In this document: positions 10,388-31,980 of the stretch, piece by piece
Layout of the letters: the number at the start of each line of letters is the position of its first letter
Numbering within the stretch: position 1 is the stretch's first letter
NCBI RefSeq assembly: GCF_000020025.1
Contig: NC_010630.1
Span: forward strand, 91,029 to 123,028
Source: Nostoc punctiforme PCC 73102
Lineage (GTDB): Bacteria > Cyanobacteriota > Cyanobacteriia > Cyanobacteriales > Nostocaceae
Direction: 5' to 3'
DNA length: 32,000 bases
Position numbers and translations under genes: made by a program
The notes under the pieces: model-generated
The model's input: the letters and a program-made list of their open reading frames with translations, nothing else
What the model was told of the DNA's origin: nothing
The model's database searches: none

Positions 10388-13300
10388 GATTTACCTCTTT
10401 TCATCCCTCGTTTTTGCTGTGCTATTTTCCTTTTTTCTGCCCGCTCGGCAACAGCTTGAAAAGATTTATTCTCTCCTTTATGCTGGCTGAAAAATTTAGC
10501 CAAATAGCTAATACTTGGATTTTGAAAAATTTCTACCATTTGTACTTCTATTCCCATTAAGATTTTGATATTTTTATTAATTTGAACCAAATGTATTGAA
10601 TTTGCACCTAAATCAAAAAAATTATCATAAACGCCTATTTTCTCTATTTGAAGCACCTCTCGCACAATTTTTGCTAAAGTTTGCTCTATTTCAGTTTTTG
10701 GTGGAACAGCACCCGTTTCAGGTTTCAATACATTTTTATTAAGCTTGGGTAACAACTTGCGGTCTACCTTGCCATTGCGATTCAAGGGCAAGGCATTTAG
10801 TATTACACAGTCAGAAGGTACCATGTAGCTGGGCAGTTTCTGCTCCAAGTAATTAAGTAACTTCTTGGAAATTGAATTTGACTCCTGAACGGGCTCTAAG
10901 GAGTTTAGTAGCACTCCTTTTAGTTGATGGTGCTGTTGTGAACTTTGCTTTTGGTTTGAGTTAAGGACTACATAAGCTACTAGCGATTGATGTTCCTTCT
11001 CGGTTGAGGTTACTACCACTTCTTTTACAGATTCATCCTGTAGGAGAGTGGCTTCAATCTCCCCTAGCTCAATCCGGTAGCCATTTATTTTTACTTGAAA
11101 ATCTTCTCTTCCCAGAATTTCAATATTGCCATCAGGCAAAAATCGCCCCGAGTCACCAGTTTTATATAAGCGCTGTTGAGTGCGAGGATGAATGATAAAG
11201 CTTTCTTCGGTCTTTTTTTCATCTCGCCAATAGCCTTTGGCTAAACCAATTCCTTCAGCATAAAGCATTCCTGGTACCCATACCGGACAGGGTTCTAAAA
11301 ATTTATTAAGAACGTGATAGCGTTGGTTAGTTATTGGTTTTCCATAAGGAATGCTCTTCCATTGCTCGTCTATTTTCTCAATAGGATAGCAAATATTCCA
11401 GATTGAAGTTTCGGTGGGTCCTCCGACACTAACAACTTTTACATCCTCCCATATTGCTTTAATCTGCTGGGGTAAATTCACTGGAATCCTATCGCCACTC
11501 ATTAGAATCAATCCCAGAGACGCTGGTACTTTTTCCAGCCCTGCCGACAGATATTCTACTAACATCTGCATAAAGGTAGGAACTGAGTTCCAGAGAGTAA
11601 CTTTGTGTTGCTTCATGAGTTCTACCCAGTGAGCCGGGTCTTTTGTTCTTTCTGCCTCTGGAATTACTAAAGTTCCCCCAGCAGCTAAGGTGCCAAAGAT
11701 ATCATATACTGACAAATCAAAGTTTAAAGCTGACAAAGCTAATACTCGGTCTTGATGGGTAATTCCAAAACGTTGGTTGATGTCAAGGATGGTATTGACA
11801 GGACCCCGATGGGTAAGCATGACTCCTTTAGGCACGCCAGTCGAGCCGGATGTATAGATAACATAGGCTAAATCATCCGGGCTTTGTACCAAATCCAAAG
11901 GACTGCTGTCTTCTCCCACTAACTCGTCGCAATCTAGGCATATCCGTGGAATTCCCTCAATCCAAGTCAGGCGTTCATTCAGCCATGACTGAGTTAAAAT
12001 CAGTTTTACTTCTCCTTGCTTAAGCAAATATTGCACCCGCTCATCAGGCAATTCTGGATCGATGGGCATATAAGCTGCACCCGACATGAGTATTCCTAAA
12101 ACGGCAACTATTTGCTCCCAACCTTTTTCCATGACTACAGCAACCAGAGTGTTGGGAGATGTCTTTAATTTTCGTAGTCGATGACCAACCTGATTTGCTA
12201 GTTGGAATAATTCTAAATAAGTTAGAGTTCGCTGAGAAGAAATAACAGCACAATCCTGTTCTCGTGCTTCTACTTGCGCCGCAAATAATGTGTGCAACAT
12301 CCACCCAGAAATGGGTGCATCCGTGGAATTGACTGTTGCTCTTTGTAAGAGTTGGGCTTTGGGTACTAATTCATAAGTTATTTCCCTCCAAACTGCATCC
12401 GAGGTGGCTAGGAGCATTAAAAATTCGCAGTAAGCTTCAAACATATCGTCCAGCAAGCCCTCTGGAAATAGATCTTCTACTGCATCCCAGTTGAAAACCA
12501 ATTTTCCATCTTCTTCCATGACTTGATGATCTAACCAAACTTGAGAGGTTTGACTGATGCTATAAATGACCTCACCAAAAACATTTAACGCCGATCTATC
12601 CTGAATAAATGAACCATTATTTAAAATGCTGGTAAATACAATCGGCATTAGCGCTTTTTGGTGGCTTCCTTGCCTCCGGGCTAGTTCCCGCAGCACATGT
12701 ACTCCACTCATATAACTGTGGTCTAAATCTTGCCATAGTTGGCGCTGTAGGTTTTGAGCGCGAACAGTAAAGGAAGCTGGTGTTGAGTTATTCACCTCCA
12801 AAAGAATCAAAGATATAGTATTGCCAATGATTTCATTTACTTGGGGATGAAGCGGTAGACGATTATATAGTGTGAGATTAAGTGTAAACTCAGTACTGTT
12901 GCTCCAAATAGCTAAGACTTCGGCAAAAGCCGTAAGTAAAATACCGGAGGGAGTCAGACCAGCTTGACTAGCTCGCTGTTTTAACTGCTGCCAAGTCTCT
13001 GATTTTAGTTGAGAACAGCGACGCTTAAACTGAGGCTGTTTTAACAAATAGGGATTTTGAGCTAAGGGCAATTGTGGCGATTGAGGCAATGTATCTAGAC
13101 GCTTGAACCAATACTCTTGCGCTCGCTTATATAATTCTGTATGTACGAGTTGCTTCTCGGTTATAACATAGTCCCGAAATGAAATTTCCAATGGCTTCAA
13201 AGTAGTATCGGGATGCTGGTAAATTTGACTCCATTCTTGACATAAGCGTAACAAACTGCCATAATCTGCCAATAATAAATCTATACTAATATGAAGTCGA

Positions 13301-15789
13301 AATCGTTGCTCGTCAAAACGAGTAGCACGAATTTCAAACAAAGGCCACTGGTCAGTTTGTAGTATTTGGTGAGACATTTGTTGACGAATTTCTTCGCTTT
13401 TAGGAATAGCGAATTTTGGTTCGAGCTTCTGTAAATCTAATACTTCAATCTCATAAAATGGCACCACCTCTAATATCTGTTGTTCGCCACCAGACAGCAC
13501 TACTGTCCGCAGCATATCGTGACGTTCAATGATTTTTTGCCAAGCGTTTGTAAGCCGTTTTATGTTTAAATTAATACTTTCAATCTCTATATAAACATGA
13601 GTGGCAACATTACTCAATTCAAAAGAATTACTGCGCCCCACCCAGTAAGCCTGTTGAATATCTGTAAGAGGGAAAGGCTGATAGCGCTGGTCTGGTGCAG
13701 AGATAATTTGTGACAGCGATAGCGCCGAATCCTTATTTTTCTGCTCTTGCAGTATGGTTTCTATATGTTCAGTTAAATCACCTATAGTTGCCGAATCAAA
13801 AAAGCTTTGTATTGGCAAATCTACTTTTAATTGCTCGCGTATCCGATAAGCAATTTGAGTTGCTAATAAAGAATCAATTCCTAAGACTGTCAAGGGTTCA
13901 CGTATATTCAATTTTGATGGATATATTTTTAACATCCTGGCGATCAGTTTTTGAAGATAAGATTCCAGTTGCCGCGTTCTATCTTCTGCTGGGGTGGCTA
14001 ACAGCTCTTCGACATTTATTAATTCGATTCCTTCAAAGGAATCGAATTTTTCCAGAATACTACTGCCGATCGCATCCAGAGTATTTGCCAAGAACCCTGC
14101 CTTACAGGCATAATGCTGAACTTTACCGCTAGAAGTCTTCAGAATACCTCCAGGTTTGAGCAATACCACAGCATAAACTTGTAATTCATGTTCTTCTGAC
14201 ACAGCAGAACGAATAGCTCCAACTACCTCTTCCACCTCTAAATTCCGGTAGTAAGCACGCTCGACCTCTTGAATAACGACTAACCGCTCTTCTCCGTCTA
14301 TTTCTACTGAAAAAGCCGCTCCACAGTTCGCTCGCAGAGACAAATGACTTTTTTGCACCGTAGATTCAATATCCTGGGGATAATAATTGCGACCTCGAAT
14401 AATAATTAAATCCTTCAGCCGACCCGTGACGAACAACTCGCCATCTTTTAAAAATCCCAAGTCCCCCGTCCTCAAAAATGGACCTGCTCCTGTATCTTGG
14501 AGGTAGGCTTGGAAAGTACGTTGGGTTGAGTCGATCTGGTTCCAGTAGCCTTGAGTTACACTTGCACTTGATACCCAAATTTCACCTATCTCATCGGAAT
14601 TGCAGCGAGTCATTCGCTCTGGATGGACAATGACCACCCGCATATCCTGCAACGGTTGACCGCACCCCACCAGTGTTTGGGTGGCATCATCTGAATTACT
14701 AGCTGGAACTACCAGATGTTGCTCTAGCGCCGCTTTTTGGAAGGTTTGCAATACTGGTGGGGGCGCCACTAGACCCCCAGAAACAATGAGAGTTGTTTCT
14801 GCCATACCGTAACAGGGGTAAAATGCTTCCCGGCGAAAGCCGCAATCAGCAAATGTGCTTGCAAACCGCTCTATAGTTTCCGCTCGGATGGGTTCAGCTC
14901 CATTAAAAGCCACTTGCCAGGTACTTAGGTCGAGAGTTGACCGCTCTTCGGAAGTTATTTTGCTTGCACATAGGTCGTAGGCAAAATTAGGACCGCCACT
15001 AGTAGTAGCTTTGTACTTGGAAATAGCCATCAGCCATTGCAGGGGGCGCATCAGAAAGGCTGTTGGAGACATGAAGATGCACGGGATGCCTAAGTACAGG
15101 GGCTGAAGTGTATTCCCGATCAAGCCCATGTCATGGAAAAGAGGCAACCAGCCGACAAAGATCGTTTGTTCTGTATGCTCGAATGCCGTCTGGATCAGTC
15201 GTTGGTTGTGCAACAGATTGCCATGATTCAACATCACCCCCTTTGGCGTTCCTGTAGAACCTGAAGTGTATTGGAGAAAAGCCAAGGTGTCTGGGGTTGC
15301 TCGATAAGGAATAAAGTCCTCAATCGGAATAAGATTATCAGTCGCGACGCACTTCAGCCCAAGGAAACCTGGATTCTCAGCCTGACTATTTATATTGCCT
15401 AATACTGATGTGGTGCTCACCACCAGGGTTGCTTGAGCATCTATGGCGATCGCCTGCAATCTAAGCATCTTCTGATTCCGTCGGGGTGGGTAAGCAGGAA
15501 CTGCGACAACCCCAGCATATAAGCAGCCAACAAAGGCAGCAATAAACTCAAAACCAGAAGGGTAGAGCAATAGAACACGATCTCCAGGAGTTGTTAAAGT
15601 TTGAAGTTGAGCGGCGATCGCTTGCGCCTTCTGGTCTAATTCTCGATATGTAATTTTCGCTGCTTCTGTCTCTCCGTCTTGCAGAAATAAAAAAGCTGTT
15701 TTACCAGCTTGGCTTAAGGATCTAAAGCGAATAATTTCAATAAAGTTAGCAACTTCCAGTCCAAGCTCAGATATATAAAACGAAACCAT
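10384..15789 (-). CDS. Loading and first NRPS module: fatty acyl-AMP ligase (FAAL)-ACP-Cy-A(Cys-like)-PCP
   Basis: 1801-aa ORF. FAAL-type motif LQYTSGSTGTPKGVMLNHGNLLHN with no preceding C domain. Carrier LGIDSLLATQ. Cy domain FPLTDIQQAYWVGR and DLLLAD (DxxxxD). A domain YTSGSTGVPKGV. Specificity positions read by eye are D-L-Y-N-L-S-V-I-W-K, close to the published Cys code DLYNLSLIWK. PCP FFDLGANSIHLV. Confidence 0.95.
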   Translation of the reverse strand: MVSFYISELGLEVANFIEIIRFRSLSQAGKTAFLFLQDGETEAAKITYRELDQKAQAIAAQLQTLTTPGDRVLLLYPSGFEFIAAFVGCLYAGVVAVPAYPPRRNQKMLRLQAIAIDAQATLVVSTTSVLGNINSQAENPGFLGLKCVATDNLIPIEDFIPYRATPDTLAFLQYTSGSTGTPKGVMLNHGNLLHNQRLIQTAFEHTEQTIFVGWLPLFHDMGLIGNTLQPLYLGIPCIFMSPTAFLMRPLQWLMAISKYKATTSGGPNFAYDLCASKITSEERSTLDLSTWQVAFNGAEPIRAETIERFASTFADCGFRREAFYPCYGMAETTLIVSGGLVAPPPVLQTFQKAALEQHLVVPASNSDDATQTLVGCGQPLQDMRVVIVHPERMTRCNSDEIGEIWVSSASVTQGYWNQIDSTQRTFQAYLQDTGAGPFLRTGDLGFLKDGELFVTGRLKDLIIIRGRNYYPQDIESTVQKSHLSLRANCGAAFSVEIDGEERLVVIQEVERAYYRNLEVEEVVGAIRSAVSEEHELQVYAVVLLKPGGILKTSSGKVQHYACKAGFLANTLDAIGSSILEKFDSFEGIELINVEELLATPAEDRTRQLESYLQKLIARMLKIYPSKLNIREPLTVLGIDSLLATQIAYRIREQLKVDLPIQSFFDSATIGDLTEHIETILQEQKNKDSALSLSQIISAPDQRYQPFPLTDIQQAYWVGRSNSFELSNVATHVYIEIESINLNIKRLTNAWQKIIERHDMLRTVVLSGGEQQILEVVPFYEIEVLDLQKLEPKFAIPKSEEIRQQMSHQILQTDQWPLFEIRATRFDEQRFRLHISIDLLLADYGSLLRLCQEWSQIYQHPDTTLKPLEISFRDYVITEKQLVHTELYKRAQEYWFKRLDTLPQSPQLPLAQNPYLLKQPQFKRRCSQLKSETWQQLKQRASQAGLTPSGILLTAFAEVLAIWSNSTEFTLNLTLYNRLPLHPQVNEIIGNTISLILLEVNNSTPASFTVRAQNLQRQLWQDLDHSYMSGVHVLRELARRQGSHQKALMPIVFTSILNNGSFIQDRSALNVFGEVIYSISQTSQVWLDHQVMEEDGKLVFNWDAVEDLFPEGLLDDMFEAYCEFLMLLATSDAVWREITYELVPKAQLLQRATVNSTDAPISGWMLHTLFAAQVEAREQDCAVISSQRTLTYLELFQLANQVGHRLRKLKTSPNTLVAVVMEKGWEQIVAVLGILMSGAAYMPIDPELPDERVQYLLKQGEVKLILTQSWLNERLTWIEGIPRICLDCDELVGEDSSPLDLVQSPDDLAYVIYTSGSTGVPKGVMLTHRGPVNTILDINQRFGITHQDRVLALSALNFDLSVYDIFGTLAAGGTLVIPEAERTKDPAHWVELMKQHKVTLWNSVPTFMQMLVEYLSAGLEKVPASLGLILMSGDRIPVNLPQQIKAIWEDVKVVSVGGPTETSIWNICYPIEKIDEQWKSIPYGKPITNQRYHVLNKFLEPCPVWVPGMLYAEGIGLAKGYWRDEKKTEESFIIHPRTQQRLYKTGDSGRFLPDGNIEILGREDFQVKINGYRIELGEIEATLLQDESVKEVVVTSTEKEHQSLVAYVVLNSNQKQSSQQHHQLKGVLLNSLEPVQESNSISKKLLNYLEQKLPSYMVPSDCVILNALPLNRNGKVDRKLLPKLNKNVLKPETGAVPPKTEIEQTLAKIVREVLQIEKIGVYDNFFDLGANSIHLVQINKNIKILMGIEVQMVEIFQNPSISYLAKFFSQHKGENKSFQAVAERAEKRKIAQQKRGMKRGKS

Positions 15790-16215: not shown

Positions 16216-16437
16216 CTAAAGTTGAGCTGGTCGATATGTTTTTTTATACCGCAGACATGACTTGTTTCGACATCGACGAATTTTTAGCTGTAGTTTTACT
16301 ACCCCGTTTAACGTTCTTATATGTCGAGGATTATTGTATTCATTCCACATTGCTTGACCGCACGAGGGGCATTTTTTTTGAACACAATCGAGTACTTCAA
16401 ACGATGTTGCCTCTGGTTTTAAACTTTTTCTTGCCAA
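16216..16437 (-). pseudogene. N-terminal Zn-ribbon fragment of a transposase (family not assigned)
   Basis: The 73-aa ORF contains CPSCGQ...RRCRNKSC (a four-Cys ribbon) and ends ...YKKTYRPAQL*. The equivalent stretch (PPTYLEQEGSLALPQSEFGLDVIA...) opens the plus-strand fragment at 18849. Together they suggest two truncated copies of one transposase family. Confidence 0.45.
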
Positions 16438-16526
16438 GTTTTTGCACCATTATTTCGCTACAAGGTCAAGATTACAGGATTTCCGCTCTTCTCTAGTAAG
16501 TTTTGCCACGCTAGGATTTTACCGCT

Positions 16527-18036
16527 TTGTATCCCACTCATGGTCAACCAACAGTTAGACCTTGGCGACTGGCGTTAATCTGTGTGCTGCAATTTATTGA
16601 AGATTTGCCAGATCGACAAGCTGCCGAAGCTGTCCGCAGTAGAATTGATTGGAAATATGTTTTGGGGTTGGAACTGACTGATTCAGGTTTTGATTTTTCT
16701 GTGTTGTGTGAATTTCGCGCCCGATTGATGGTAGGTGGTGCAGAACAACAACTGCTAGACACGTTACTGAGGCAATTTAGAGAGCGCGGATGGCTCAAAG
16801 AAAGAGGAAAACAGCGCACTGACTCCACCCATGTGCTGGCTGCTATCCGTAACTTGAACCGACTCGAAGGGGTAGGTGAAACTCTACGTGCAGCCCTCAA
16901 TTCACTAGCTACAGTCGCGCCCGATTGGTTGCGTTCATGGGTACCTTCAGAATGGTACGAGCGTTACGGTCGGGCTGTAGAAGAATATCGCTTACCCAAG
17001 GGCATTGCCGCACGCACCTGAATATGCCGAGATGATTGGCACAGATGGTATGCAGTTACTGATAGCTGTATGGGCAGAAACTGCCCCAGATTGGCTTGCT
17101 CATGTGCCCATCGTCGAAATTCTGCGACAGACTTGGGTACATCAATATTATGTGGAGAATGACCAAGTAAGATTGCGGGCTGCCAGTGACTTAGCCCCTT
17201 CTGGTAGTCGTTTTGACTCTCCTTATGACATCGATGCTCGCTTTGGTAATAAACGCAGTGTGACTTGGACTGGGTATAAAGTGCATCTGACCGAAACTTG
17301 TGATGAGAACCAAGTCCATTTAATTACTCATGCCATTACCACCCAAGCTCAGGTTTCAGATGTTACACAAACTGCATCTATTCACGAGGCATTGGCTGCC
17401 AAAGACCTGCTCCCCAGTCAACACATTGTTGATGCTGGCTATGTCGATAGTAATCTTATCGTCACTAGCCGTAAACAGTATGGAATAGATTTAGTCGGCC
17501 CAGTCCGCCCGAATGTTAGTTGGCAAGCTAAAACGCCTGGCGGTTATGATATCAGCCAGTTTACAGTGAGCTGGAATACAAAACGGGTGACTTGTCCTCA
17601 AGGTAAAAAAAGTACCAAAAAGTGGGTTCCGACTCAGGACAAGTGGGGCAATGCAGTGATTAACGTGAGATTCCCCCGCAAAACTTGCCGACTTTGCAAC
17701 GCCCGTGCTTTATGCACCCGCTCGAAAACTGAGCCAAGAGAATTGACACTGCGCCCAAAGGCAGAATACCTTGCATTGCAAACCGTGCGACAACAACAGC
17801 TTTCCACGGATTGGAAAAAACTCTATGACGCAAGAGCAGGAGTTGAAGGAACGTTGTCTCAAGGAATTGGCAGCTTGGGGCTGCGACAAGCTCGCTACAT
17901 TGGTTTGGTTAAAGTTCGGCTCCAGCACTTGCTGACTGCCGTGGCTCTTAATGTGGTGCGGATGGTTGCTTGGTTACATGGCCGAACCCATGCGAAAACC
18001 AGAATTTCTCGATTTGCTGCTTTAGCTCCAGTGTGA
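16527..18036 (+). pseudogene. IS1182-family (IS5-like DDE) transposase, 5'-truncated and frameshifted
   Basis: ORF 16527..17021 (LYPTHGQPTVRPWRLALICVLQFIEDLPDRQAAEAVRSRIDWKYVLGLELTD...QRTDSTHVLA) and ORF 17005..18036 are consecutive parts of one IS1182-type protein split by a frameshift near 17005-17021. Full-length homologues, as I recall them, carry about 50 more N-terminal residues. In-frame stops lie just upstream at ~16491-16514. Confidence 0.8.
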
Positions 18037-18084
18037 AGCAAGAGCTTTCAATCCAGATTACCAATAATATCTATTAAGATCATC

Positions 18085-18156
18085 CTTCTCCATGTAATAC
18101 ACAGATAACCCTCTGCTACCTAATGAGCTAAAATAACGGTGTAATACATGGAGAAG
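18085..18156. promoter_or_regulatory. 18-bp inverted repeat (17/18) bracketing the upstream region and RBS of ORF 18162
   Basis: CTTCTCCATGTAATACAC (18085-18102) matches the reverse complement of GTGTAATACATGGAGAAG (18139-18156). The spacer is 36 nt. The right arm contains GGAG 8 nt upstream of the ATG at 18162. This could be an operator pair or an RBS-sequestering hairpin. Confidence 0.5.
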
Positions 18157-18161
18157 CGGTT

Positions 18162-18659
18162 ATGAAACGTGATATCCAGGGGAAGTTTGCCCTGAAAAAT
18201 GAAGATTATCGTTTAGTTCGCTCGTTAAGACTAACTGATTCCACGTGGGTAGCTTTGGGCATCACATCTGAATGCTTGGGTCTTACTAGGGCTGACTATT
18301 TAGAGCAGATCATTCGTGAAAAAGCTCTGCCAAGTACGGTTTCTCCAAGTAATACACGGGAGAAAGATTTCCTTTTTCCATGTATTACAAGGCAAAATAC
18401 GGATTCACCACCGCGTAATACACGGTTTCAGGAGGAAATAGAAGTACTCCTTGCTGAAATACAAAATCTCAGTCAAAAGAATGCTGCATTGATGCAACGA
18501 ACAGCAATTGCTTTCTCCCAAATAGAACTTGAGCTTTTACGCGATCGCATTTTGCTTGATTTGAAATTAGGCAAGCAAGCCCCTGGATACAAAGCTGTTC
18601 AAAAAGCTCTCAATCGTTTCATCGCTGAATTGACTTACCCAAACACAAGCGTTTTTTGA
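18162..18659 (+). CDS. Hypothetical protein with a ribbon-helix-helix-like N-terminus and a coiled-coil-like C-terminus
   Basis: 165-aa ORF with GGAG 8 nt upstream. RSLRLTDSTWVALGITSECLGLTRADYLEQII fits a strand-helix-helix (RHH/CopG-like) pattern, and the C-terminal half is heptad-like. The central part (PSNTREKDFLFPCITRQNTDSPPRNTRF) is encoded by three copies of the GTAATACAC DNA motif, so part of the ORF may be fortuitous. Confidence 0.55.
   Translation: MKRDIQGKFALKNEDYRLVRSLRLTDSTWVALGITSECLGLTRADYLEQIIREKALPSTVSPSNTREKDFLFPCITRQNTDSPPRNTRFQEEIEVLLAEIQNLSQKNAALMQRTAIAFSQIELELLRDRILLDLKLGKQAPGYKAVQKALNRFIAELTYPNTSVF
18348..18425 (+). repeat. Three further copies of the TGTAATACAC-type 12-mer inside ORF 18162..18659
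   Basis: AGTAATACACGG at 18348-18359, TGTATTACAAGG at 18381-18392 and CGTAATACACGG at 18414-18425. Spacing is 33 and 33 nt. The first copy is embedded in TTCTCCAAGTAATACAC, which matches 18086-18102 at 16/17. Confidence 0.6.
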
Positions 18660-18848
18660 CTTCGCCAACAGCATCATCCTCTTAAGTTGGCGTAAAAAAA
18701 ACCAAAGTATGTAAAGATAAGTAAATACATAAAATGCATCTACCGAGGTTACTAAGACATGGGCGCTCGTTAAAAAGGGAACTACAGTACAGAACGTGTA
18801 AAATTTGAATCTAATCGTTCTGGTCAAACTTTTGTTACATAGTTATAA

Positions 18849-19058
18849 ATTTTCCCGCCCACTTACTTAGAGCAAGAAGGGTCACTCGCTCTACCACAGA
18901 GCGAATTTGGTTTGGATGTGATTGCTTATATAGGAGCGTTACGATACCAGGAACATAGAAGTGTTCCCCAAATACACACTCACCTTGAATTAAAGGGTAT
19001 ATGTATAAGTCAAAGAACGGTCACGCACCTAATTGACAGATATGACGAATTACTTTCT
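18849..19058 (+). pseudogene. Internal fragment of a transposase gene (same family as 16216..16437), interrupted at 19058 by the Tn7-like element
   Basis: The open frame reads IFPPTYLEQEGSLALPQSEFGLDVIAYIGALRYQEHRSVPQIHTHLELKGICISQRTVTHLIDRYDELLS. It stops making sense exactly at the TGT terminus (19059) and resumes in frame at 31981 (LWLKDH...). There is a stop codon immediately upstream at 18846-18848 and no N-terminal part. Confidence 0.6.
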
Positions 19059-19076
19059 TGTGATTTGAATCATAAA
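19059..19076 (+). repeat. Outer element left terminal repeat
   Basis: TGTGATTTGAATCATAAA. It contains the TTTGAATCATAA motif, which recurs inverted at the other end. Confidence 0.85.
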
Positions 19077-19094
19077 ATAAACTTTTAGCTCACA

Positions 19095-19132
19095 ATATGC
19101 TTCAGAAAGCATTAACCATTTTATGCTTCAAA
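19095..19132. repeat. Two subterminal copies of the end motif in the outer left end
   Basis: ATATGCTTCAGA at 19095-19106 and TTATGCTTCAAA at 19121-19132. Both fit TTATG(A/C)TTCA(A/G)A. They are candidate TnsB-binding sites. Confidence 0.5.
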
Positions 19133-19157
19133 AATCGGCGAAAAAGTAGAAGACATG

Positions 19158-19174
19158 TTCCATGTAATACACAG
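19158..19174 (+). repeat. Sixth copy of the TCCATGTAATACACAG motif, inside the outer element's left end
   Basis: TTCCATGTAATACACAG (19158-19174). Its last 16 nt (TCCATGTAATACACAG, 19159-19174) are identical to 18089-18104. Confidence 0.6.
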
Positions 19175-19258
19175 TTAAGGGGTTAGATTTGGCAAAGCTG
19201 TCATGAAGTACAAACTAAACTGTTTAGTTTAAATATCAAGCATCACCATCTAAAGCCC

Positions 19259-19672
19259 TTAAATAGATACAGTTAAGATTTTAAACAACCAGTCTTCTAG
19301 AGGTACGCCGAATTCTTCTGGAATCTGTTGTTGTATCTTGGTGTATTGAACCTGATTCCAATATGCAGGATTAAATATACTGTGCGGAACTTCTACATCA
19401 ACTAATTGTGGATTTTCCATAACACGACACCACATTCTGGCTCGATAATCAATTGTGAGGTTCCCAAAAGGTAACTCAATCCAATAATGCGGTGACACTT
19501 GACCATGCCCAACCCATCGGAACGAACCGTACCAAATTAGATGTTCAATACCCTCATTAAATAAAATAGTAGAGAGAACTTTGCTATGCCCATCACACTC
19601 CGTTGGGGAATTATTCCAAACACCTAATTCTTCACGTAGCTGCTCAATAAAATCATTATTCATTCCAAGCAT
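19259..19672 (-). CDS. Hypothetical small protein with a papain/transglutaminase-like Cys-His-Asp pattern
   Basis: 137-aa ORF with GGAG 9 nt upstream of the ATG. The pattern TECDGHSKVLSTIL...GIEH...SPHYWIEL...LTIDY fits the order and spacing of the C..., HxWxE and D motifs of transglutaminase-like cysteine peptidase folds. This rests on the motifs alone. Confidence 0.55.
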   Translation of the reverse strand: MLGMNNDFIEQLREELGVWNNSPTECDGHSKVLSTILFNEGIEHLIWYGSFRWVGHGQVSPHYWIELPFGNLTIDYRARMWCRVMENPQLVDVEVPHSIFNPAYWNQVQYTKIQQQIPEEFGVPLEDWLFKILTVSI

Positions 19673-19784
19673 ATTTATTCTCCAATAGTACTTTCAATTT
19701 GCGAACTGTATTGATTGTCATATCAGCTTGTGTTGCTGTTTGACGCAATAATAATTTCTCATCAAGTGCTGCAATTACTCCTTG

Positions 19785-20753
19785 TTAAGCACGTTCTTCT
19801 TCAATTTCTTCAATTAACTGCTCAATCCAACTAGGTTTACCTGCTAGAATATCTACTTCAAACTCTGATAACTGCTTTTTTTTCATCCGCCGCAAATCTC
19901 GCAATGCAGCAGTCGCATCTTCCGGGTTGTCAAATTTGTAATATTCAGTCAAACTCCCAATAGAGCAATTGTAGTCAGCATATCTATATTTAAAATATTT
20001 CTCTACATTCCCTCGATGCGACCAGTGTCCTAAAACTTTGATTGAAACATGAGAAAAATGTTTGACCAAATCAGTTTGAACTTCAGCTACGCGTGCTTGT
20101 ATTTCCCGCCTAGTCACACCAATTTTATAAAATGTTTCTTTATCAGTATCAATTTGAAGGTAATACAGAGTATTCGATAAAATTTTCTTTAATTCGGCGC
20201 GATATATTTGCAGATCCCAAAGACATTCATGAAAATTTGATGCATCATCAAGATAAGCAACTTGAACTTTTTTCTCTAACTGCTGCAACTTCTCCCACAA
20301 TATTGATTCTTGCACTTGGTTGAACAGCATTAACGATAATGCACCAACAGGTATCTTACCTAGCTTGGTAAACTGGTATTCTCCATAGAGACGGTATTCA
20401 TTGTACTCTAACAATTTTTCTTTAATAAAAATTGAGTTAATTTTACTCTCATAAATACCTTTGTTCTTCCATCCGTATCGATTCCAAAGGGTCTTGATCT
20501 GTTGGAGTTCTTTACCTGTTAGACATATATTGAAGTTATTGTATAAAGGTAAAGTAGGAATTTCACGTTCACTGCGATTAGCTACTTCTCTGCAAGTAAA
20601 GTTAGTGTGTGCGAAGTGGTGTTCTTTACGATTTCCCTTTTTCGCCGTCAACTCACCACCACAGTAGGGACACTTTAACTGAGTTCTCCCTCGTAGAACA
20701 TCTTCAATCGGTACTAAGATCAAATCTAGGTCAACACCATACCTGAGCCACAT
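19785..20753 (-). CDS. Two-domain protein: CoiA-like Zn-ribbon N-terminus plus a T5orf172 (GIY-YIG-superfamily-like) C-terminal domain
   Basis: 322-aa ORF. The N-terminus LKCPYCGGELTAKKGNRKEHHFAH matches the CoiA-family signature C-x2-C...K.G....HFAH. The C-terminus FYKIGVTRREIQARVAEVQ...LGHW...GNVEKYFKYRY...EYYKF resembles the T5orf172/MUG113 pattern. Confidence 0.7.
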   Translation of the reverse strand: MWLRYGVDLDLILVPIEDVLRGRTQLKCPYCGGELTAKKGNRKEHHFAHTNFTCREVANRSEREIPTLPLYNNFNICLTGKELQQIKTLWNRYGWKNKGIYESKINSIFIKEKLLEYNEYRLYGEYQFTKLGKIPVGALSLMLFNQVQESILWEKLQQLEKKVQVAYLDDASNFHECLWDLQIYRAELKKILSNTLYYLQIDTDKETFYKIGVTRREIQARVAEVQTDLVKHFSHVSIKVLGHWSHRGNVEKYFKYRYADYNCSIGSLTEYYKFDNPEDATAALRDLRRMKKKQLSEFEVDILAGKPSWIEQLIEEIEEERA

Positions 20754-21065
20754 TTGGGAATACCTTTTATTTGATACACCAGGAAAGGTAGGCTTGAAAA
20801 GCGCGTAATGATATTTTACTGTATCAAAAAAAGCTGCTGTAAAATAAATAATTCTTAAGGAATTTATCTTAAAAAGAAATACGTTTAAATTCCCAAATTA
20901 ACATTGTCCAGTCATAACCATCAGAATCAACTACACTAATGTACCATCTAAAAGAGGCTGTATACCTCTTTAATGCCATTGACTTAACTAACATATTCTC
21001 TTCATCAGTAGCGTCGGAGCTATGACCTGCTTGAATTAAATCACCAACTCTAGTAATTTCATATA

Positions 21066-21344
21066 TTAATCAAGTGTTGAATAATCAGAAAGTTCTGTTG
21101 TTTCTAACTCACTTAAAAAGCCAGTTAATGCAAATGGACATTTACAACTAAGCTCTTTTTCTAAAAAATCAGCATTTAAGTGATATTCAAAACACACAGT
21201 ATCAAAAATATCCTCAGTAGTTAATTCTAGATTTTCATCTAATTCCACTATTCGTGCTTCTATTAAGTAAATTAGCTCTTTACTAGAGAAGTAAGTTTTG
21301 ATTGTAGAAGTAATTATTAGATGATTTATTTTAGTAACTATCAT
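21066..21344 (-). CDS. Hypothetical acidic small protein
   Basis: 92-aa ORF co-directional with tnsC, 31 nt downstream of the 138-aa ORF. I recognise no motif. It may be part of a longer frameshifted gene (see findings). Confidence 0.4.
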   Translation of the reverse strand: MIVTKINHLIITSTIKTYFSSKELIYLIEARIVELDENLELTTEDIFDTVCFEYHLNADFLEKELSCKCPFALTGFLSELETTELSDYSTLD

Positions 21345-21375
21345 TTTAACTCTCCGATGATTTTAAACATAATCT

Positions 21376-21792
21376 TCAAATTGGTAAATGCTGTTGTAAG
21401 ATTGGGTGCAAAGAAGCAGCAATTGCCTCAAACTTATCACCATCTGGATAGGGACGAAGAATTTCCTCACCGTCTTCGTTCAACCACTCTTGTCGTATTG
21501 GAGTGTACTCAAGCGATAGAATTGCAGTTCTCCACCAGCCAGATAATGCTAAATGTTCCCCAGACCAAAATAGCCGGAAATCAACCTTCTTATTTCGATA
21601 AACTTCACTAATAGGATTAGAATAAGGACGGTTTTTAGGATCAAAAGTCTCAGTAAAATAGCCTTGAAAATCAATTACTAAAAAATCTTTTTTAATTTCT
21701 GCTGTTAATTTAAAACGAGAGTGTAGATAATGAGCAGATAAAATTTTAGCGGCTGCTAATTCAAATTCTATAGGTAAAGTAGATAAACTCAT
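21376..21792 (-). CDS. Hypothetical protein in the position usually occupied by tniQ
   Basis: 138-aa ORF 90 nt downstream of tnsC on the same strand. It has no Cys-rich TniQ-like zinc motif and no family I recognise. Confidence 0.55.
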   Translation of the reverse strand: MSLSTLPIEFELAAAKILSAHYLHSRFKLTAEIKKDFLVIDFQGYFTETFDPKNRPYSNPISEVYRNKKVDFRLFWSGEHLALSGWWRTAILSLEYTPIRQEWLNEDGEEILRPYPDGDKFEAIAASLHPILQQHLPI

Positions 21793-21882
21793 TAATTAAT
21801 AATTTCCTTGAATACCGATGCGAACATTATTGAAAAATTGATACCCTTGATAAAAACTGTTTACTACTGAATTTTTTGATGT

Positions 21883-23355
21883 TCACTCAAGTCCAACAGT
21901 GTCTCGTTTGGGTTTGCGTTGCCCAACACGTTGGGAAGACTTTTTAGGCATTTTCTGTTTAGTTGCAGCTTCATCATCAATTGTCTTCTGTTCTATTATG
22001 GGACTGACAGTAATATTTGTTTCTAGTGGTGTCTCACTAATTGAAGAATCAGTTTGTTTTGTCTTCTTGCGAGTTTGTTTCTTCTTGGGGACTGGCTCTA
22101 TAGAAGTTTTGCCTGGTGTAGTAGAAGGCGTTTCATCTATCGTAGAACTGACGGGCTTTTTACGAGTCCGTTTCGCTTGAGATGGTGGTTTGTCAGATTT
22201 CGGAGGCGATGCTACCACATCTGCTGCGCCCTTTGATAAATCCACCGCAGTTTTTGGTACAGATGTAGAACCCATTCCCATCTGTAGCAAATGCCACAAA
22301 TGTTCACGGCGACTTTCCATATAAGAGAGTTTTTGTTCTCCCTCAGTGGTATCCAATGCCATACGTTCACATTGGGCTAGTGTTAGGGTATGTTCATGCA
22401 ATCTTTCTAAACTAAGAGTGTCGTGGCCATCATGTGCTACCGCTGCCACAGCCCGTATAAGCCAGTCTTTGAGTACCCCAACACAACCAATGCAACGTTC
22501 ATAGAAATAAAGCCAATGCTGCATTAGCTCTCTTACATCAACATTCATCGGTACTTGCATCAGGAGTGCCAATAATGCGGCTTGAAAATCCTGACGGTCA
22601 AGTTCATTTTGATACAGATAACGCGGAAAATGGATATCTAGTCCCCGCCGGGATGCTTGACCACTTAAATTGCGGAAATTTAGCAGTTCGTAAGTCCCAA
22701 TGAGAATGTGTAGCACACCCGTAACGTTGGTCATAGACTTAATCCAGTCCAACTGGTCTAAAAGCTTACCAGCACTTGCACCAGTCCCAATCTTCATTAA
22801 GTGCTGTGCTTCGTCCAAAATCACCGCCCGCACTCCGCGTTTGGTCATCGCTTCTTCTAATGCGTGGCGCAGTTCGGGAGAATCATTAAACTGCGCTGTT
22901 TTAGTCCGGGAGCGTCCTTTCTTCTCCCAAGTCTGCTCCGCATCAATATCTATCAGCATCCGCCGCTCATAGAATGGTTCTCCCAAAAGCTTTAGCGCAG
23001 TGCGGTAATAATCTGCGCGATTAAACACCCCACCGTCAGATGGTCGTGTTTCTAACAGCAATAACGGCATCAGGGGCTGACTGCCGTTACGATAGCTTAA
23101 GGAATTGGATACACCTGGTAACTGTTCGGGTACATTCTCATTTAACCGTTTAGCAATCTGCCGAATCATCGTTGTTTTACCCACACCGCTTGGCCCATAA
23201 ACCAACACATGAGCAAATCCGGCGGGTTCTCGAATCGCACGCATCAACAACATATCTACCCGTGCTAACTGGGGATGTAAAACTGCATACTCCTTAAACT
23301 GAGTTAGTTTGAGGTGCATTTGGTCGTTTTGATTAAGGCTCTCCAAATTGTCCAT
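21883..23355 (-). CDS. tnsC: TnsC/TniB-like AAA+ ATPase with a long low-complexity C-terminal extension
   Basis: 490-aa ORF. Walker A is VYGPSGVGKTT and Walker B is VILDEAQHL. The start overlaps the tnsAB stop (TAATG). The core is co-linear with the inner element's TnsC (…LDEAQHL…IGTYELLN…CVG(V/L)LK(D/N)WL…). Residues ~360-475 are K/P/T/S-rich. The terminal motif is RVGQRKPKRDTVG. Confidence 0.9.
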   Translation of the reverse strand: MDNLESLNQNDQMHLKLTQFKEYAVLHPQLARVDMLLMRAIREPAGFAHVLVYGPSGVGKTTMIRQIAKRLNENVPEQLPGVSNSLSYRNGSQPLMPLLLLETRPSDGGVFNRADYYRTALKLLGEPFYERRMLIDIDAEQTWEKKGRSRTKTAQFNDSPELRHALEEAMTKRGVRAVILDEAQHLMKIGTGASAGKLLDQLDWIKSMTNVTGVLHILIGTYELLNFRNLSGQASRRGLDIHFPRYLYQNELDRQDFQAALLALLMQVPMNVDVRELMQHWLYFYERCIGCVGVLKDWLIRAVAAVAHDGHDTLSLERLHEHTLTLAQCERMALDTTEGEQKLSYMESRREHLWHLLQMGMGSTSVPKTAVDLSKGAADVVASPPKSDKPPSQAKRTRKKPVSSTIDETPSTTPGKTSIEPVPKKKQTRKKTKQTDSSISETPLETNITVSPIIEQKTIDDEAATKQKMPKKSSQRVGQRKPKRDTVGLE

Positions 23356-26072
23356 TAACGGTATTCCCCTAGTATCGGCAGTCGTGTGAGATCCAACAGT
23401 TCAATGTTGTTTTGCAGTGCTGGCAATTGTTCGTCATCTTGACTGTGTGCTTCTATCTCCGGCTCAAGAGTGCTGACTGGGGGAAACTGGGGTACACCTT
23501 CCTTATTGAGTGTTAAATTCTCCAGTACCCCAACAGCTTCCAAATCCCGTAATCGTTGCATGAGTAAGATTTCATGTTCTTGCACCGCCGCGATGAAGTC
23601 TGCAAGGCGTTTGGCAGAGATATTTGTACTCACAGCATTACGCTTATCTTGCTGTCTGATTTCTTGGGCAGCTAATAGCACTTCTTTCTCCGTGCGTCCG
23701 GCAAAGGTGCTGTAATACTGGGAGATACATTTGACCCATCTTCCCTCTAAGTACGCATAAGCTACACCCATATCAAAAGGGTCATAGCGTACACTGACTT
23801 TGGTCTTTTCGACAACCGGATTGCGGAAAGCATCGTTCCAGTAATAAAGATAATTGACTTTAATTCCCTGTCCCGGCTGAACTTTAGCGTTGCCTTTGGG
23901 TGTACTAGGGCGTGTTGCCATGAGAAAGTCTTCGTTGTATGCAATACGTCGGTGTTCCCTCTCCCCTGTGGCAGCCATTGCGTCAGTATAAACTTGTAAT
24001 GGTGTCTCACCCAAGGAATCATGTACGCTTGTGTCATAAATGGTGTATGCCCACTCACTCAGGTAGGTATGTAAAGAAGCTAATGTCCAAACGGCAAGTT
24101 GTTTGGGGTCAACAGAAGAAGTGAGTTGACGCGGTTGTTTACTGGCTTGGGTGTTGCCCAGTAAGTTAAAGATAAATTCAGTATTAGTTGTTCCGAATAA
24201 TCGCTCAACTACTGAGCCAAAACGAGGTTTTGCACCAGGACGAGTCTTTTTGATGCAGTGGTAGCGTGCTAATAAGGTATCAAAGTAAACGCTATGAAAT
24301 TCCTTACCGCCATCTACAACTACAGATTGGGGAAAACGACCAAAACGCTGGACGCACAACCGTAGTGCCATCATGCAAGACCTGTAACTGGGTGGGTCAA
24401 AGGTGAGATAAACTGCTAAGATGCGTCGGGAGTAGGCATCAATCAGTAATGTCAGCCAAGGTCGTCCTAAGTTCCGACCAGTTACTTGGGAGCGTAATTC
24501 GATATCGAGTTGGGTGTGGTCAAGATGACAGATAGCAAAAGGTCTGTCTCCATGCCGGGGTGTAGTTCTAGCTAGTTCTAAGACAATCGGTTCTGTTGCG
24601 TATGCGGCTTTTGCTCCCTGACGTTTTAAAGTCTGCTCATGGATTGGACGCTTTTTTAGCCGAGTATAAAATGTGCGCTGACTCAGTGGAGGGATGTTGG
24701 CTGTACAGCAGGCTCTTGTATATGCCCGATAAACGGAAGCGGCTGGAGCTTGCCTTGGTGTCTCGAAGTGTTCTGTAATAAATTTATCTAGTAAAACGCT
24801 GGTATCTGTTGGTGCTTTGGATAGGCGATTTCCTCTATTATTTGTACGTGGGAGCAAACCAACATAACCGCAACCAAAAGTGGCTTCCGCTTCCCGAAAC
24901 TGTTTTACCCATCGAGATAAGGTGCTTTGAGGTATGTCCTTCCCTATATCTGTGTGATGCTGGAAATATGCTTGTACTAAATGAAATCTGCGATTGGCTC
25001 TTTGTAGATCCGCAGGCGAGGCGGCATCCATCAATTCACGCACTCCCTCATTGATGGTTGTTTGTTTTTCTGAGGTGAGAATATTGATAGTGCTACTGTC
25101 GAATAATTGCAGAAAAAATGCTGTGGGCAATTGCATTGGTTGCCCGACTGCGGGTAGCAGTGTGGTTGTAGTCTCGCCCAAGTTAACTAAAGTCCAAAGT
25201 TGTGAGTCCCAGACTAATAAGGTATTAGGCAAGAGTGTTGTGGGTGAGGTGATTTTTCGATGATCCCCAGTTGTCCCTATGGCTAAATATGTATGAGCAG
25301 TATGAGTTTGCTCATCTGCCCATAGCTGAACTCGCCAATGTTCCACTAGGGGAACTGCATACAAGTCCACGTAGAGTTGCTCTGTGGCAATCATGGCGTA
25401 AATATCGTTAGCACGCACTCCGGGAATGGTTGCAAGTGTGGCGGCTATAGTTATTCCTGGACTGGCTTTAACTGAAGACAGTATTTGTTCTGTAATGGAA
25501 AGGGGGACATTGGCGGTGAACCTAAAGTAGTCTTCTAAAAACATTAGGTTCTGGGTGAATATGGGATTTAGTTCGGTATCGGTGCGAACATGATATTTGA
25601 GTCCATAAGATTCGGCGTAAGCTTCTCCTGGTGGGCAATGCCAATGACCAGTTTCAGTTTTTTGGTAGCGTGAAGGGTATTTTTGGGCTAGTCGTTTTAA
25701 TTCGGTTTCGGTTTTCCATTCTTCCCAAGCTGCACCTGTCGTCCGCAGTACGAAGAAGTCTGGGGTATGGTAATGACCTATATTTCGTCCGTTTTGGTTT
25801 TGGTACTGAATTTTAAATGGAGGTGGTTGGTCGTAGAACTCTAACACCTGTGGGTCGTGTTCCATTTGGTAAATCGCCCATAGTTCTACTGTGTGGCTCT
25901 CAAATTGAATGGTTTGACCCATTTTGCGGCTAGGGTAAACTCCACTGACGTTCTTAGCGCGTCCTTGTACTCTGCGAGAAGGTGGGGCAGCGCGAATTGC
26001 GGCGATTATTAAGAGTATTTGTGCCGTTAGTTGCTGTTGCTTACACCAATGGTCAAATTCATCGTCTGTCAT
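23355..26072 (-). CDS. tnsB: TnsA-TnsB fusion transposase: N-terminal TnsA-like endonuclease module plus a DDE/rve TnsB-type transposase
   Basis: 905-aa ORF. The N-terminus QFESHTVEL...DPQVLEFYDQPPPFKIQY...YHTPDFFVLR...WEEWKTETEL gives E58/D105/K120. This pattern and spacing resemble Tn7 TnsA E63/D114/K132. The DDE core is HLDHTQLD, LLIDAYSRRILA and VVDGGKEFHS. There is no separate tnsA gene in the element. Confidence 0.85.
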   Translation of the reverse strand: MTDDEFDHWCKQQQLTAQILLIIAAIRAAPPSRRVQGRAKNVSGVYPSRKMGQTIQFESHTVELWAIYQMEHDPQVLEFYDQPPPFKIQYQNQNGRNIGHYHTPDFFVLRTTGAAWEEWKTETELKRLAQKYPSRYQKTETGHWHCPPGEAYAESYGLKYHVRTDTELNPIFTQNLMFLEDYFRFTANVPLSITEQILSSVKASPGITIAATLATIPGVRANDIYAMIATEQLYVDLYAVPLVEHWRVQLWADEQTHTAHTYLAIGTTGDHRKITSPTTLLPNTLLVWDSQLWTLVNLGETTTTLLPAVGQPMQLPTAFFLQLFDSSTINILTSEKQTTINEGVRELMDAASPADLQRANRRFHLVQAYFQHHTDIGKDIPQSTLSRWVKQFREAEATFGCGYVGLLPRTNNRGNRLSKAPTDTSVLLDKFITEHFETPRQAPAASVYRAYTRACCTANIPPLSQRTFYTRLKKRPIHEQTLKRQGAKAAYATEPIVLELARTTPRHGDRPFAICHLDHTQLDIELRSQVTGRNLGRPWLTLLIDAYSRRILAVYLTFDPPSYRSCMMALRLCVQRFGRFPQSVVVDGGKEFHSVYFDTLLARYHCIKKTRPGAKPRFGSVVERLFGTTNTEFIFNLLGNTQASKQPRQLTSSVDPKQLAVWTLASLHTYLSEWAYTIYDTSVHDSLGETPLQVYTDAMAATGEREHRRIAYNEDFLMATRPSTPKGNAKVQPGQGIKVNYLYYWNDAFRNPVVEKTKVSVRYDPFDMGVAYAYLEGRWVKCISQYYSTFAGRTEKEVLLAAQEIRQQDKRNAVSTNISAKRLADFIAAVQEHEILLMQRLRDLEAVGVLENLTLNKEGVPQFPPVSTLEPEIEAHSQDDEQLPALQNNIELLDLTRLPILGEYR

Positions 26073-26149
26073 GAGAATGCTTCTCTTTGCCAGGAGGCGG
26101 TTTTAGGCTTTCAGTACGCAATACCAAACTACAGAGGCATGGTTTTAAG

Positions 26150-26311
26150 TGAAGCATATCTTGGAATTTTGAACCATATTTTGAATTGAAAGTTTATAAG
26201 TGGGCAATTTTTTCAAAGATTTTTTGTGCAAGTTTCATTCAATTGTGTTTTTTCAACTCATTTTTTAATTATGCTTCAGAATTTTAACTCTCTCTCATGA
26301 TTTGATTCAAA
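26150..26311. repeat. Subterminal end-motif copies of the outer element's right end, between the tnsAB start and the nested insertion
   Basis: In the same orientation as the terminal site: TTATGCTTCAGA (26269-26280) and TTTGATTCAAA (26301-26311). In the opposite orientation: TGAAGCATAT (26150-26159) and TTTGAACCATA (26168-26178). Confidence 0.5.
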
Positions 26312-26357
26312 GTTTTATGTTGGGATTGGTGAGAAAGTCCGAAATTGCGTTAACTCT

Positions 26358-26408
26358 TGTCACTTAAAGGATATTGTGGCCGTTTTTAAACCATAAAGTG
26401 GCCGCAGT
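26358..26408 (+). repeat. Inner element terminal IR, tnsAB-proximal (right-end type)
   Basis: It contains two GTGGCCG-centred sub-repeats (ATTGTGGCCGTTTTT and AAAGTGGCCGCAGT), which are candidate TnsB-binding sites. Confidence 0.9.
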
Positions 26409-26518
26409 CATCTGAACTGGTAAGTATAAATATTTATATCAATAAAAGACTGTTTAACTGGCGAAAGCCTAGATTTGTGGTAAGAGCTTGTTGCGGCTTT
26501 AAAAGCTTGGGGGCCAAT

Positions 26519-31837: not shown

Positions 31838-31871
31838 ATCTTATTTATTCGCCTTTCTCTAAGGTTTTACT

Positions 31872-31922
31872 ACTGCGGCCACTTTATGCTTTAAAAACGG
31901 CCACAATATCCTTTAAGTGACA
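31872..31922 (-). repeat. Inner element terminal IR, tniQ-proximal (left-end type)
   Basis: Its reverse complement equals 26358-26408 except for one base. Confidence 0.9.
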
Positions 31923-31934
31923 ACTCTTCTCGAT

Positions 31935-31975
31935 TTATGATTCAAAATTTTTCCCACATTATGATTCAAAGCACA
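31935..31975 (-). repeat. Terminal 41 bp of the outer element's right end, now separated from the rest of that end by the nested element
   Basis: TTATGATTCAAA occurs at 31935-31946 and 31959-31970 (24-bp period). It ends ...GCACA at 31975, the inverted counterpart of 19059-19076. Confidence 0.85.
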
Positions 31976-31980
31976 TTTCT

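Follow-up and report, generated by a model that had tools for sequence, protein, structure and literature searches.

How does a Tn7-like transposon choose its target when no target-selector gene accompanies its core machinery? This question is raised by a stretch of 32,000 nucleotides from Nostoc punctiforme PCC 73102 (contig NC_010630.1, positions 91,029 to 123,028), called here the window, which contains a Tn7-like element interrupted by a second, nested one. The outer element encodes TnsAB, a fusion of TnsA and TnsB, and TnsC, and four open reading frames (ORFs) of other kinds stand in the tniQ position. A preliminary description, made from the sequence alone, offered three explanations: a novel selector among these ORFs, insertion driven by TnsC without any selector, or dependence in trans on the TniQ of a related element such as the nested one. 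The underlying observation was right, but it was not recognised there that a TniQ-less branch, that of Tn5541, had already been published (Hsieh and Peters 2022, PMC9881144). The outer element is a cargo-bearing member of this branch and not a new kind of system, and insertion driven by TnsC is the best fit of the three explanations. We give a probability of about 0.65 to the reading that this is a cargo-carrying Tn5541-branch transposon, selector-less as a family trait, whose TnsC picks the target itself.

Tn7-like systems are valued for insertion that is gated by a dedicated selector, and the licensing of TnsC is central to the engineering of CRISPR-associated transposons (CASTs) and to lowering their off-target insertion. 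A lineage that occurs naturally and widely, is evidently mobile and has TnsA, TnsB and TnsC without TniQ is a test case for the minimal features of TnsC autonomy.

An outer element without a recognisable selector gene

The outer element spans positions 19059-31975, limits that slightly refine the earlier ones, and is flanked by a perfect TTTCT target-site duplication (TSD). Its TGT...ACA termini, its repeated transposase-binding-like sites and its 5-bp TSD are as in Tn7-like transposons. The left (L) end has the tip TGTGATTTGAATCATAAA and TnsB-site-like repeats at 19065-19075 and 19121-19131. Of the 'GTGTATTACATGG' motif found ahead of a small ORF in minimal relatives, it retains a single arm. 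The right (R) end stops with ...TTATGATTCAAAGCACA at 31975, and its tip, ending in ...GCACA, has two TTATGATTCAA repeats (31935-31945 and 31959-31969). Furthermore, the empty site was seen directly, in an intact ISNCY transposase gene on plasmid pCC7120alpha of Nostoc PCC 7120 (locus L083). This gene reads ...gagttacTTTCTttatggctaaaagaccataa, which is the left flank of the window, one TTTCT and the last 20 bases of the window. The intact ends and perfect duplication described before are therefore upheld.

The transposase-binding-like 11-mers (TTGAATCATAA or TTGAAGCATAA; 19065-19131, 26269-26279 and 31935-31969) have an odd arrangement. The terminal L-end copy is inverted with respect to the R-end copies, as expected; the inner L-end copy (19121-19131) is oriented like the R-end copies. 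A unique arrangement of sites in TnsAB-fusion elements was remarked by Hsieh and Peters 2022 (PMC9881144).

The core machinery of the outer element is intact. A TnsA-type endonuclease domain occupies aa 37-248 of the 905-aa protein (PF08722, 7.2e-11; NF033179, 1.8e-10), with the catalytic-type motifs FESH at aa 57, TPDFF at aa 103 and EEWK at aa 117. In the same single ORF, as in the Tn5541 branch, it is fused to the DDE transposase part, TnsB (PF00665 and PF09299; HLDHTQLD at aa 516, VVDGG at aa 585, VVERLFG at aa 621). TnsC has both Walker A (G54-T61) and Walker B (D181/E182) intact, and its core, aa 16-386, matches the TnsC of PmcCAST, type I-B2 (PDB 8fcu_Q, 6.6e-69), which is the closest solved TnsC.

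Downstream of tnsAB-tnsC, around 2.8 kb separate tnsC from the L end. The four co-directional minus-strand ORFs of 138, 92, 322 and 137 aa (ORF138, ORF92, ORF322 and ORF137) were found here, where the preliminary description had placed them. None of them gave a Pfam or NCBIfam match at E<=1 to a TniQ, TnsD, TnsE, integrase, tyrosine-recombinase-like or Cas family, and none matched a PDB chain at E<=10, either by sequence or by profile. Regarding ORF138 in particular, the comparison of its family with a 34-member TniQ alignment by hhalign gave a probability of 0.1%, and Foldseek with its model found nothing at E<=0.001 in PDB and BFVD. Thus, Pfam, NCBIfam, PDB profile search, hhalign and Foldseek together rule out ORF138 as a divergent TniQ.

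We also ran a TniQ hidden Markov model (HMM) with --max, that is without filters, over six-frame translations of the window and of 86 loci, 10,028 segments altogether. It matched only the inner TniQ of the window itself (2.5e-217), the next best match being at 0.03, and a tniQ pseudogene remnant in 19059-21882 or in the sibling loci described below is therefore ruled out. The inner 528-aa protein served as positive control and is a true TniQ, as had been proposed: it was recovered by Pfam TniQ (1.4e-15) and by the PDB chains of TnsD (8v32_J, 1.1e-79) and TniQ (8fcu_P). In agreement with the earlier claim that cas genes and repeat arrays are absent, neither a tandem or CRISPR-like array nor a guide RNA was found, there was no credible Rfam match, and no outer-element protein has a cas domain, so that the element does not qualify as a CAST. 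The absence of a recognisable target-selector gene from the outer element is thus confirmed.

Sibling loci, target sites and the TnsC linker

Using the outer TnsC as query and one genome per species, we collected 72 sibling loci, nearly all of them cyanobacterial and mostly from Nostocales, with one from a Ktedonobacteria genome. The inner TniQ had no tblastn match within 10 kb in any of the 72, in no sibling is tnsC followed by a co-directional ORF of the size of TniQ, and Pfam found no TniQ domain in ten ORFs located downstream of sibling tnsC genes. Five plasmid copies likewise lack tniQ. Therefore the lack of tniQ is a family trait and not a deletion in this copy of the outer element, the simple explanation that a sibling with tniQ between tnsC and these ORFs would have supported. 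For the same reason, none of the siblings carries a similar nested element. In many of them the L end lies just 94-590 bp after tnsC, and cargo-bearing siblings are common in the closest clade.

The smallest members are elements of 4.75 kb that consist of tnsAB and tnsC and no other genes, found in Tolypothrix PCC 7601 and Nostoc ATCC 53789. Two copies on two plasmids of Nostoc ATCC 53789 (L090 and L091) show 100% identity along 4,749 bp and yet have different perfect TSDs, GCTCC and ACATT, which indicates recent movement; the perfect TSDs of L081 (CAGTC) and L089 (GAAAG) are different again. Two-gene relatives are thus multicopy and some have recently moved, and it is these elements, with identical copies at different sites, that make insertion driven by TnsC the best fit.

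Two siblings deserve separate mention. The element of Nostoc sp. FACHB-152 (L010, around 6959-11860) has a TnsC that is 89% identical to the outer one and yet different ends, TATGGTTTTACCCAAAAAATGGCC and TGTGCTTTTACCTAAAACTTGGAC, with the TSD ATTCT. These ends resemble those of the Tolypothrix elements, so there may have been an exchange of ends or a recombination between sub-clades. The sole non-cyanobacterial sibling (L057, Ktedonobacteria bacterium brp13, AP024096.1, 8858604-8879644 of 8879929) has a TnsC with 58% identity over aa 16-359 and is located no more than about 300 bp from where the chromosome record ends; telomeric Tn7-like elements have already been published.

The Tn5541 branch was defined by a TnsAB fusion, a TnsC with a C-terminal extension and no TniQ, and it is marked as TniQ-less in Figure 7 of the same paper, where its occurrence only on plasmids was noted and a novel targeting preference suggested (Hsieh and Peters 2022, PMC9881144). 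The outer element shares with it the TnsA-TnsB fusion, the extended TnsC, the lack of TniQ, the TGT/ACA ends, the 5-bp TSD and relatives that are mostly plasmid-borne, a likeness that rests on the published description and on the Tolypothrix elements. However, Tn5541 is described as cargo-free, whereas the outer element has 2.6 kb of cargo and a nested transposon, and at least one sibling is chromosomal. Compared with the two-gene elements of Tolypothrix PCC 7601, which we take to be Fremyella diplosiphon, the source organism of Tn5541 and Tn5469, the outer element is 71% identical in TnsC protein and 73% in core DNA. To the known branch our survey adds breadth (72 loci), members with cargo and on chromosomes, the lack of an insertion-site consensus, the patch-bearing TnsC linker, and the recognition that the ORFs in the tniQ position are exchangeable cargo.

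Regarding the target sites, we accepted a pair of ends as an insertion only if it had terminal inverted repeats and was flanked by matching 5-bp TSD copies; this gave 16 insertions with perfect TSDs. Read in gene orientation these are AGAAA (the window), CTGAC, CTCAT, CTGAA, GGAAC, ATTAG, ATTCC, GACGG, ATTCT, ATAAT, TCTAG, GCAAG, CAGTC, GAAAG, GCTCC and ACATT. A comparison of sibling insertion sites for a conserved attachment sequence had been suggested. Among the 12 sites analysed we found neither such a sequence nor a consensus of the flanks, and there was no AT preference in them (59.7% against 59.0% in the locus background). The only hint, and a weak one, is an A at position 4 of the TSD in 10 of the 16 sites by our count. 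The insertions are inside genes, the target of the outer element being the transposase gene of another insertion sequence (IS). Among siblings in complete records, eight loci are on plasmids and three on chromosomes, one of the latter, from the chromosome of Anabaena azotica (L027), being flanked by a TSD; in PLSDB, which does not include the window, 63 plasmids have matches. Since chromosomal siblings exist, the "plasmid-only" occurrence is a bias and not a rule.

The so-called extension of TnsC is in fact an inserted linker that separates the core from a conserved terminal peptide, RVGQRKP(K/Q)RD.VG. The outer TnsC has 490 aa, against 379 aa in the inner one and 383 aa in that of PmcCAST. 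Its linker of 122 aa (346-467) is rich in P, S and T, with two basic patches (393-400 and 423-430), and RVGQRKPKRD, the terminal peptide, is at aa 476-485. All 40 full-length TnsCs of the family (438-563 aa) have such a P/S/T-rich linker, of 105-201 aa, which is poorly conserved outside one to five basic patches, for example (A/T)KRTRKK or PKKKQTRK, spaced by around 30-45 aa. Clades with TnsC identities as low as 57% still conserve the linker and its K/R patches, whereas the spacers that separate the patches drift. By contrast, the TniQ-associated inner TnsC has a linker of 27 aa without any basic patch. A strongly basic TnsC tail was also considered and ruled out, because the charge of the whole linker is only about 0 to +7 and the signal consists of short conserved patches. 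No beta-clamp-type motif was found in the linkers of the family. In the longest TnsCs (520-563 aa; L022, L024, L028, L029 and L040) a PKK(K/R)QTRK patch and its spacer are repeated three to five times, so the linker seems to have grown by internal duplication.

The terminal peptide itself is another matter. The C-terminus of Tn7 TnsC binds TnsA, and by this analogy the peptide is probably a docking site for the transposase. The shared RVGQRKPKRDxVG tail had been put forward as a sign of dependence on the nested element. It is indeed present in both TnsCs of the window, but also in the PmcCAST TnsC 8fcu_Q (KVGKRKPKRDPIGV); it is therefore clade-wide and says nothing specific on cross-talk between outer and inner element. 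The C-terminal region of a TnsC of type I-B, a close relative, is described as a helical domain and then a disordered tail (PMC11915506).

The four ORFs behind tnsC are variable, exchangeable cargo in two modules, ORF138 with ORF92 and ORF322 with ORF137. The GC content of this block is 33-36%, against 46% in tnsAB and tnsC, and nothing meaningful was found in PADLOC or PHROGs that would assign any of the four to a defence system or a phage family. ORF138 is an accessory gene of mobile elements and not a TniQ. Its family, which has no Pfam match, falls into 16 clusters at 90% identity; at 50% identity (among 1.84 billion representatives) there are 40. ORF138 also has homologues outside transposons (loci L073/L074 and L079). 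One with 74% identity belongs to a cluster of plasmid genes that includes FtsK/SpoIIIE and an M23 peptidase, and one with 58% is flanked by a UvrD helicase and a tyrosine integrase; tnsABC is near neither of them. ORF92 has tblastn matches in nine of the 72 sibling loci (60-65% identity) and no family match in Pfam, NCBIfam, PADLOC, PHROGs or PDB.

ORF322 does have a zinc ribbon, as had been noticed, but this is of CoiA_N type and joined to a MUG113/T5orf172 domain (Pfam matches of 5.6e-07 and 5.7e-08), which rules it out as a TniQ-like module. Its homologues, annotated 'GIY-YIG nuclease family protein', stand alone on plasmids of Nostoc UHCC 0926 and Crinalium, and just one of the 72 siblings (L064) has it, on the other strand. 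ORF137 has no Pfam, NCBIfam, PADLOC, PHROGs or PDB match and only four homologues among 5.8 billion proteins; its AlphaFold2 (AF2) model, with a predicted local distance difference test (pLDDT) value of 40, is too poor for a fold search. A truncated sibling in Nostoc sp. ChiQUE02 (L084, 7546-10723, fetched separately), which retains only TnsC aa 326-488 and lies beside an IS, has all four cargo genes, with an ORF322 homologue that is longer (401 aa) and overlaps ORF137. Because the ORF322-ORF137 pair is inverted there relative to ORF138-ORF92, it suggests an independently mobile or invertible nuclease-like module.

How the target may be chosen

If TnsC picks the target itself, it would load on target DNA unaided and with little sequence preference, and loaded TnsC would recruit and activate TnsAB, as MuB does with MuA or as happens in gain-of-function mutants of Tn7 TnsC. 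The patch-bearing linker of 105-201 aa may be an adaptation that replaces the TniQ-assisted loading of TnsC, and it could also lie behind the apparent plasmid bias. The Tn7 mutant TnsC(A225V) is described as transposing without TnsD or TnsE, and these mutants resemble the outer family in needing neither protein, in low sequence specificity and in the 5-bp TSD. However, they are laboratory point mutants that favour AT-rich DNA, whereas the Tn5541 branch is natural, lacks the selector family-wide, has the expanded linker and shows no AT bias in the 12 sites.

Phage Mu (MuA/MuB) and the TnsBC elements without TniQ (Hsieh et al. 2024 preprint, 10.1101/2024.11.13.623437) likewise combine a DDE transposase with an AAA+ loader on target DNA and no dedicated selector protein. 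They have no TnsA and transpose replicatively, whereas the outer family keeps a TnsA domain whose catalytic-type motifs predict cut-and-paste movement. PmcCAST, whose TnsC (PDB 8fcu) shares the terminal peptide and lacks the long linker, works with TniQ, TnsD and Cascade. Tn5469 has TnsAB, TnsC and one TniQ, is cargo-free and is reported to insert at no fixed attachment site (Hsieh and Peters 2022, PMC9881144). Elements of this type, among them the nested one, belong to the same TnsAB-fusion clade and have the same TnsC terminal peptide, but they keep TniQ, have the short linker without a patch and differ in their end sequences.

Several points weigh against target choice by TnsC itself. Wild-type Tn7 requires TnsD or TnsE. 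Untargeted insertion by ShCAST is described as still strongly TniQ-dependent, and TnsBC of a type I-E CAST was inactive in E. coli unless the Walker B motif of TnsC was mutated. That TnsAB and TnsC suffice for transposition in the Tn5541 branch is something that we infer, and a role for the linker and its basic patches is suggested by their conservation only. Moreover, the counts behind the apparent plasmid bias are small (8 loci on plasmids against 3 on chromosomes), TniQ-bearing relatives on plasmids of the same genomes could help in trans, and the position of ORF138 right after tnsC, fixed in the closest clade, could reflect a function in transposition.

Among the other explanations, the least doubtful one, although it should be taken as tentative, is that TniQ has been replaced by a selector intrinsic to TnsC. 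The linker with its KKKQTRKK-like patches would then be a targeting module, TnsE-like in function and fused into TnsC, which either allows unaided loading or steers it to plasmid-specific or replication-associated structures. Such a module would recognise a structural feature, or one linked to replication or conjugation, and so direct insertion to plasmids; if true, this is a 'TnsABC-only' Tn7 system occurring in nature, whose protein-intrinsic mode of target choice would be new. Even less likely is a variant in which ORF138 modulates this intrinsic targeting in the sub-clade that carries it. The conservation of the linker and its patches while the spacers drift argues for a selector of this kind, and so do the plasmid location of 8 of the 11 loci in complete records and of all 63 PLSDB matches, and the plasmid-only occurrence and targeting preference put forward by Hsieh and Peters 2022 (PMC9881144). 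The plasmid enrichment, however, consists of raw counts, uncorrected for replicon size and for selection against chromosomal insertions, and the TSD-flanked copy of Anabaena azotica is at least one complete chromosomal insertion. The lack of a beta-clamp-type motif in the linkers also speaks against it.

That the TniQ-less elements borrow TniQ in trans, from another TnsAB-family element in the same cell, whether of Tn5469 type (as the nested one is) or not, is unlikely. Tolypothrix PCC 7601 and Nostoc ATCC 53789, where the two-gene elements are found, do have TniQ-bearing Tn7-like relatives on their plasmids, the inner element sits within the outer one, and a title of 1998 (Schaefer and Kahn, cited in PMC9881144) pairs Tn5469 and Tn5541 as one transposon family. 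However, Tn7-like elements are so abundant in Nostocales that little can be concluded from co-occurrence. The cores of outer and inner TnsC are only 33% identical, the tail that they share is clade-wide, TniQ is absent within 10 kb of every sibling, and the family-wide remodelling of TnsC suggests an adaptation to life without TniQ.

Still less credit can be given to a novel small selector, or TnsC co-factor, encoded by ORF138, possibly with ORF92, in the sub-clade that carries it. Its full-length form stands 89-94 bp after tnsC in the same orientation in ten of the 72 loci, another two have short remnants of it, and it is also present in 90%-identical copies of the element on Anabaena variabilis plasmids. 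The AF2 model appears well folded (pLDDT 81), a predicted helix, six-stranded sheet and helix without a structural match. Nevertheless, ORF138 and ORF92 are confined to the clade with at least 85% TnsC identity, where around 10 of the 22 loci lack them, including the TSD-flanked L003, L010 and L017, and none of the more distant clades has ORF138, nor do the 4.75-kb elements that moved recently. To this are added its homologues in settings without tnsABC and the lack of similarity to TniQ, TnsD or TnsE by any method. ORF322 fares no better, and the earlier suggestion of either protein as selector is disfavoured, since both are missing from most members of the family and both are found outside transposons.

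Finally, a local loss of a normal tniQ that left the outer element as a dead remnant can practically be dismissed. The R end is interrupted 53 bp from its tip by the nested element, and this copy may be impaired. However, the sibling survey, with no tniQ in any sibling, had already refuted such a loss, tnsAB and tnsC are full-length with their catalytic motifs, the TSD and ends are intact, and 19059-21882 holds no TniQ-like remnant in any frame. Target choice by TnsC itself, in a family that lacks a selector, is the most likely reading.

Features of the window and neighbouring genes

Table 1. Features of the outer element and of the element nested in it (positions in the window)
Feature	Positions	Strand	Remarks
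Left TSD copy	19054-19058		TTTCT; once in the uninterrupted ISNCY gene
Outer L end	19059-19258	-	Tip TGTGATTTGAATCATAAA
ORF137	19259-19672	-	137 aa; orphan cargo gene, partner of ORF322
ORF322	19785-20753	-	322 aa; CoiA_N-type zinc ribbon aa 20-54, MUG113/T5orf172 aa 196-286
ORF92	21066-21344	-	92 aa; small cargo ORF travelling with ORF138
ORF138	21376-21792	-	138 aa; small alpha/beta protein (predicted) in tniQ position
tnsC	21883-23355	-	490 aa; AAA_22/TniB; PF13401, PF05621
tnsAB fusion	23355-26072	-	905 aa; Pfam TnsA_N, rve, Mu-transpos_C
Inner part of outer R end	26073-26357	-	One TnsB-site-like repeat, 26269-26279; severed from the tip by the nested element
Nested Tn5469-type element	26358-31922	+	5,565 bp; tnsAB 883 aa, tnsC 379 aa, tniQ 528 aa; no cargo
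Outer R-end tip	31928-31975	-	Last 48 bp, beyond the right TSD copy of the nested element
Right TSD copy	31976-31980		TTTCT; then the rest of the ISNCY transposase gene to the window end

The nested element (Table 1) has 52-nt inverted repeats at 98% and the TSD ACTCT, at 26353-26357 and 31923-31927. Its insertion, between transposase-binding-like repeats of the outer R end, is likely to impair the outer element. The half that contains its tniQ has a 99.3% copy on a plasmid of Nostoc sp. C057.

The outer element itself was inserted into a nest of insertion sequences (16227-19058 and 31976-32000). The ISNCY copy that it hit is rearranged, with its first 290 bp or so inverted at 16227-16514, and an IS1182-like segment (around 16515-18868), comprising a frameshifted transposase and an ORF of 165 aa, lies between two ISNCY pieces.

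This 165-aa ORF (MKRDIQGKFALKNEDYRLVRSLRLTD..., 18162-18659, plus strand), preceded by an inverted repeat (18085-18107 and 18134-18156), adjoins an IS1182-family transposase both in the window and on pCC7120alpha, and it has no Pfam or PDB match. Many minimal tnsAB-tnsC siblings have a homologue of it (37-52% identity, around 140 aa) on the opposite strand of the stretch from tnsC to the L end, and remnants of 57-77 aa are left in minimal elements of the close clade. It is absent from the 4.75-kb elements and from the outer element, where one 'GTGTATTACATGG' arm is left. The ORF may be a regulator that is shared between different transposons.

Next to this pile of mobile elements, which fills the right half of the window, two giant minus-strand ORFs (4826-15789) constitute a hybrid of nonribosomal peptide synthetase (NRPS) and polyketide synthase (PKS). 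The NRPS protein of 1801 aa has adenylation, PCP, condensation, adenylation and PCP domains, and the PKS protein of 1853 aa has KS, AT, DH, KR and ACP domains. A sibling element on plasmid3 of Nostoc carneum is also located beside an 'amino acid adenylation' gene.

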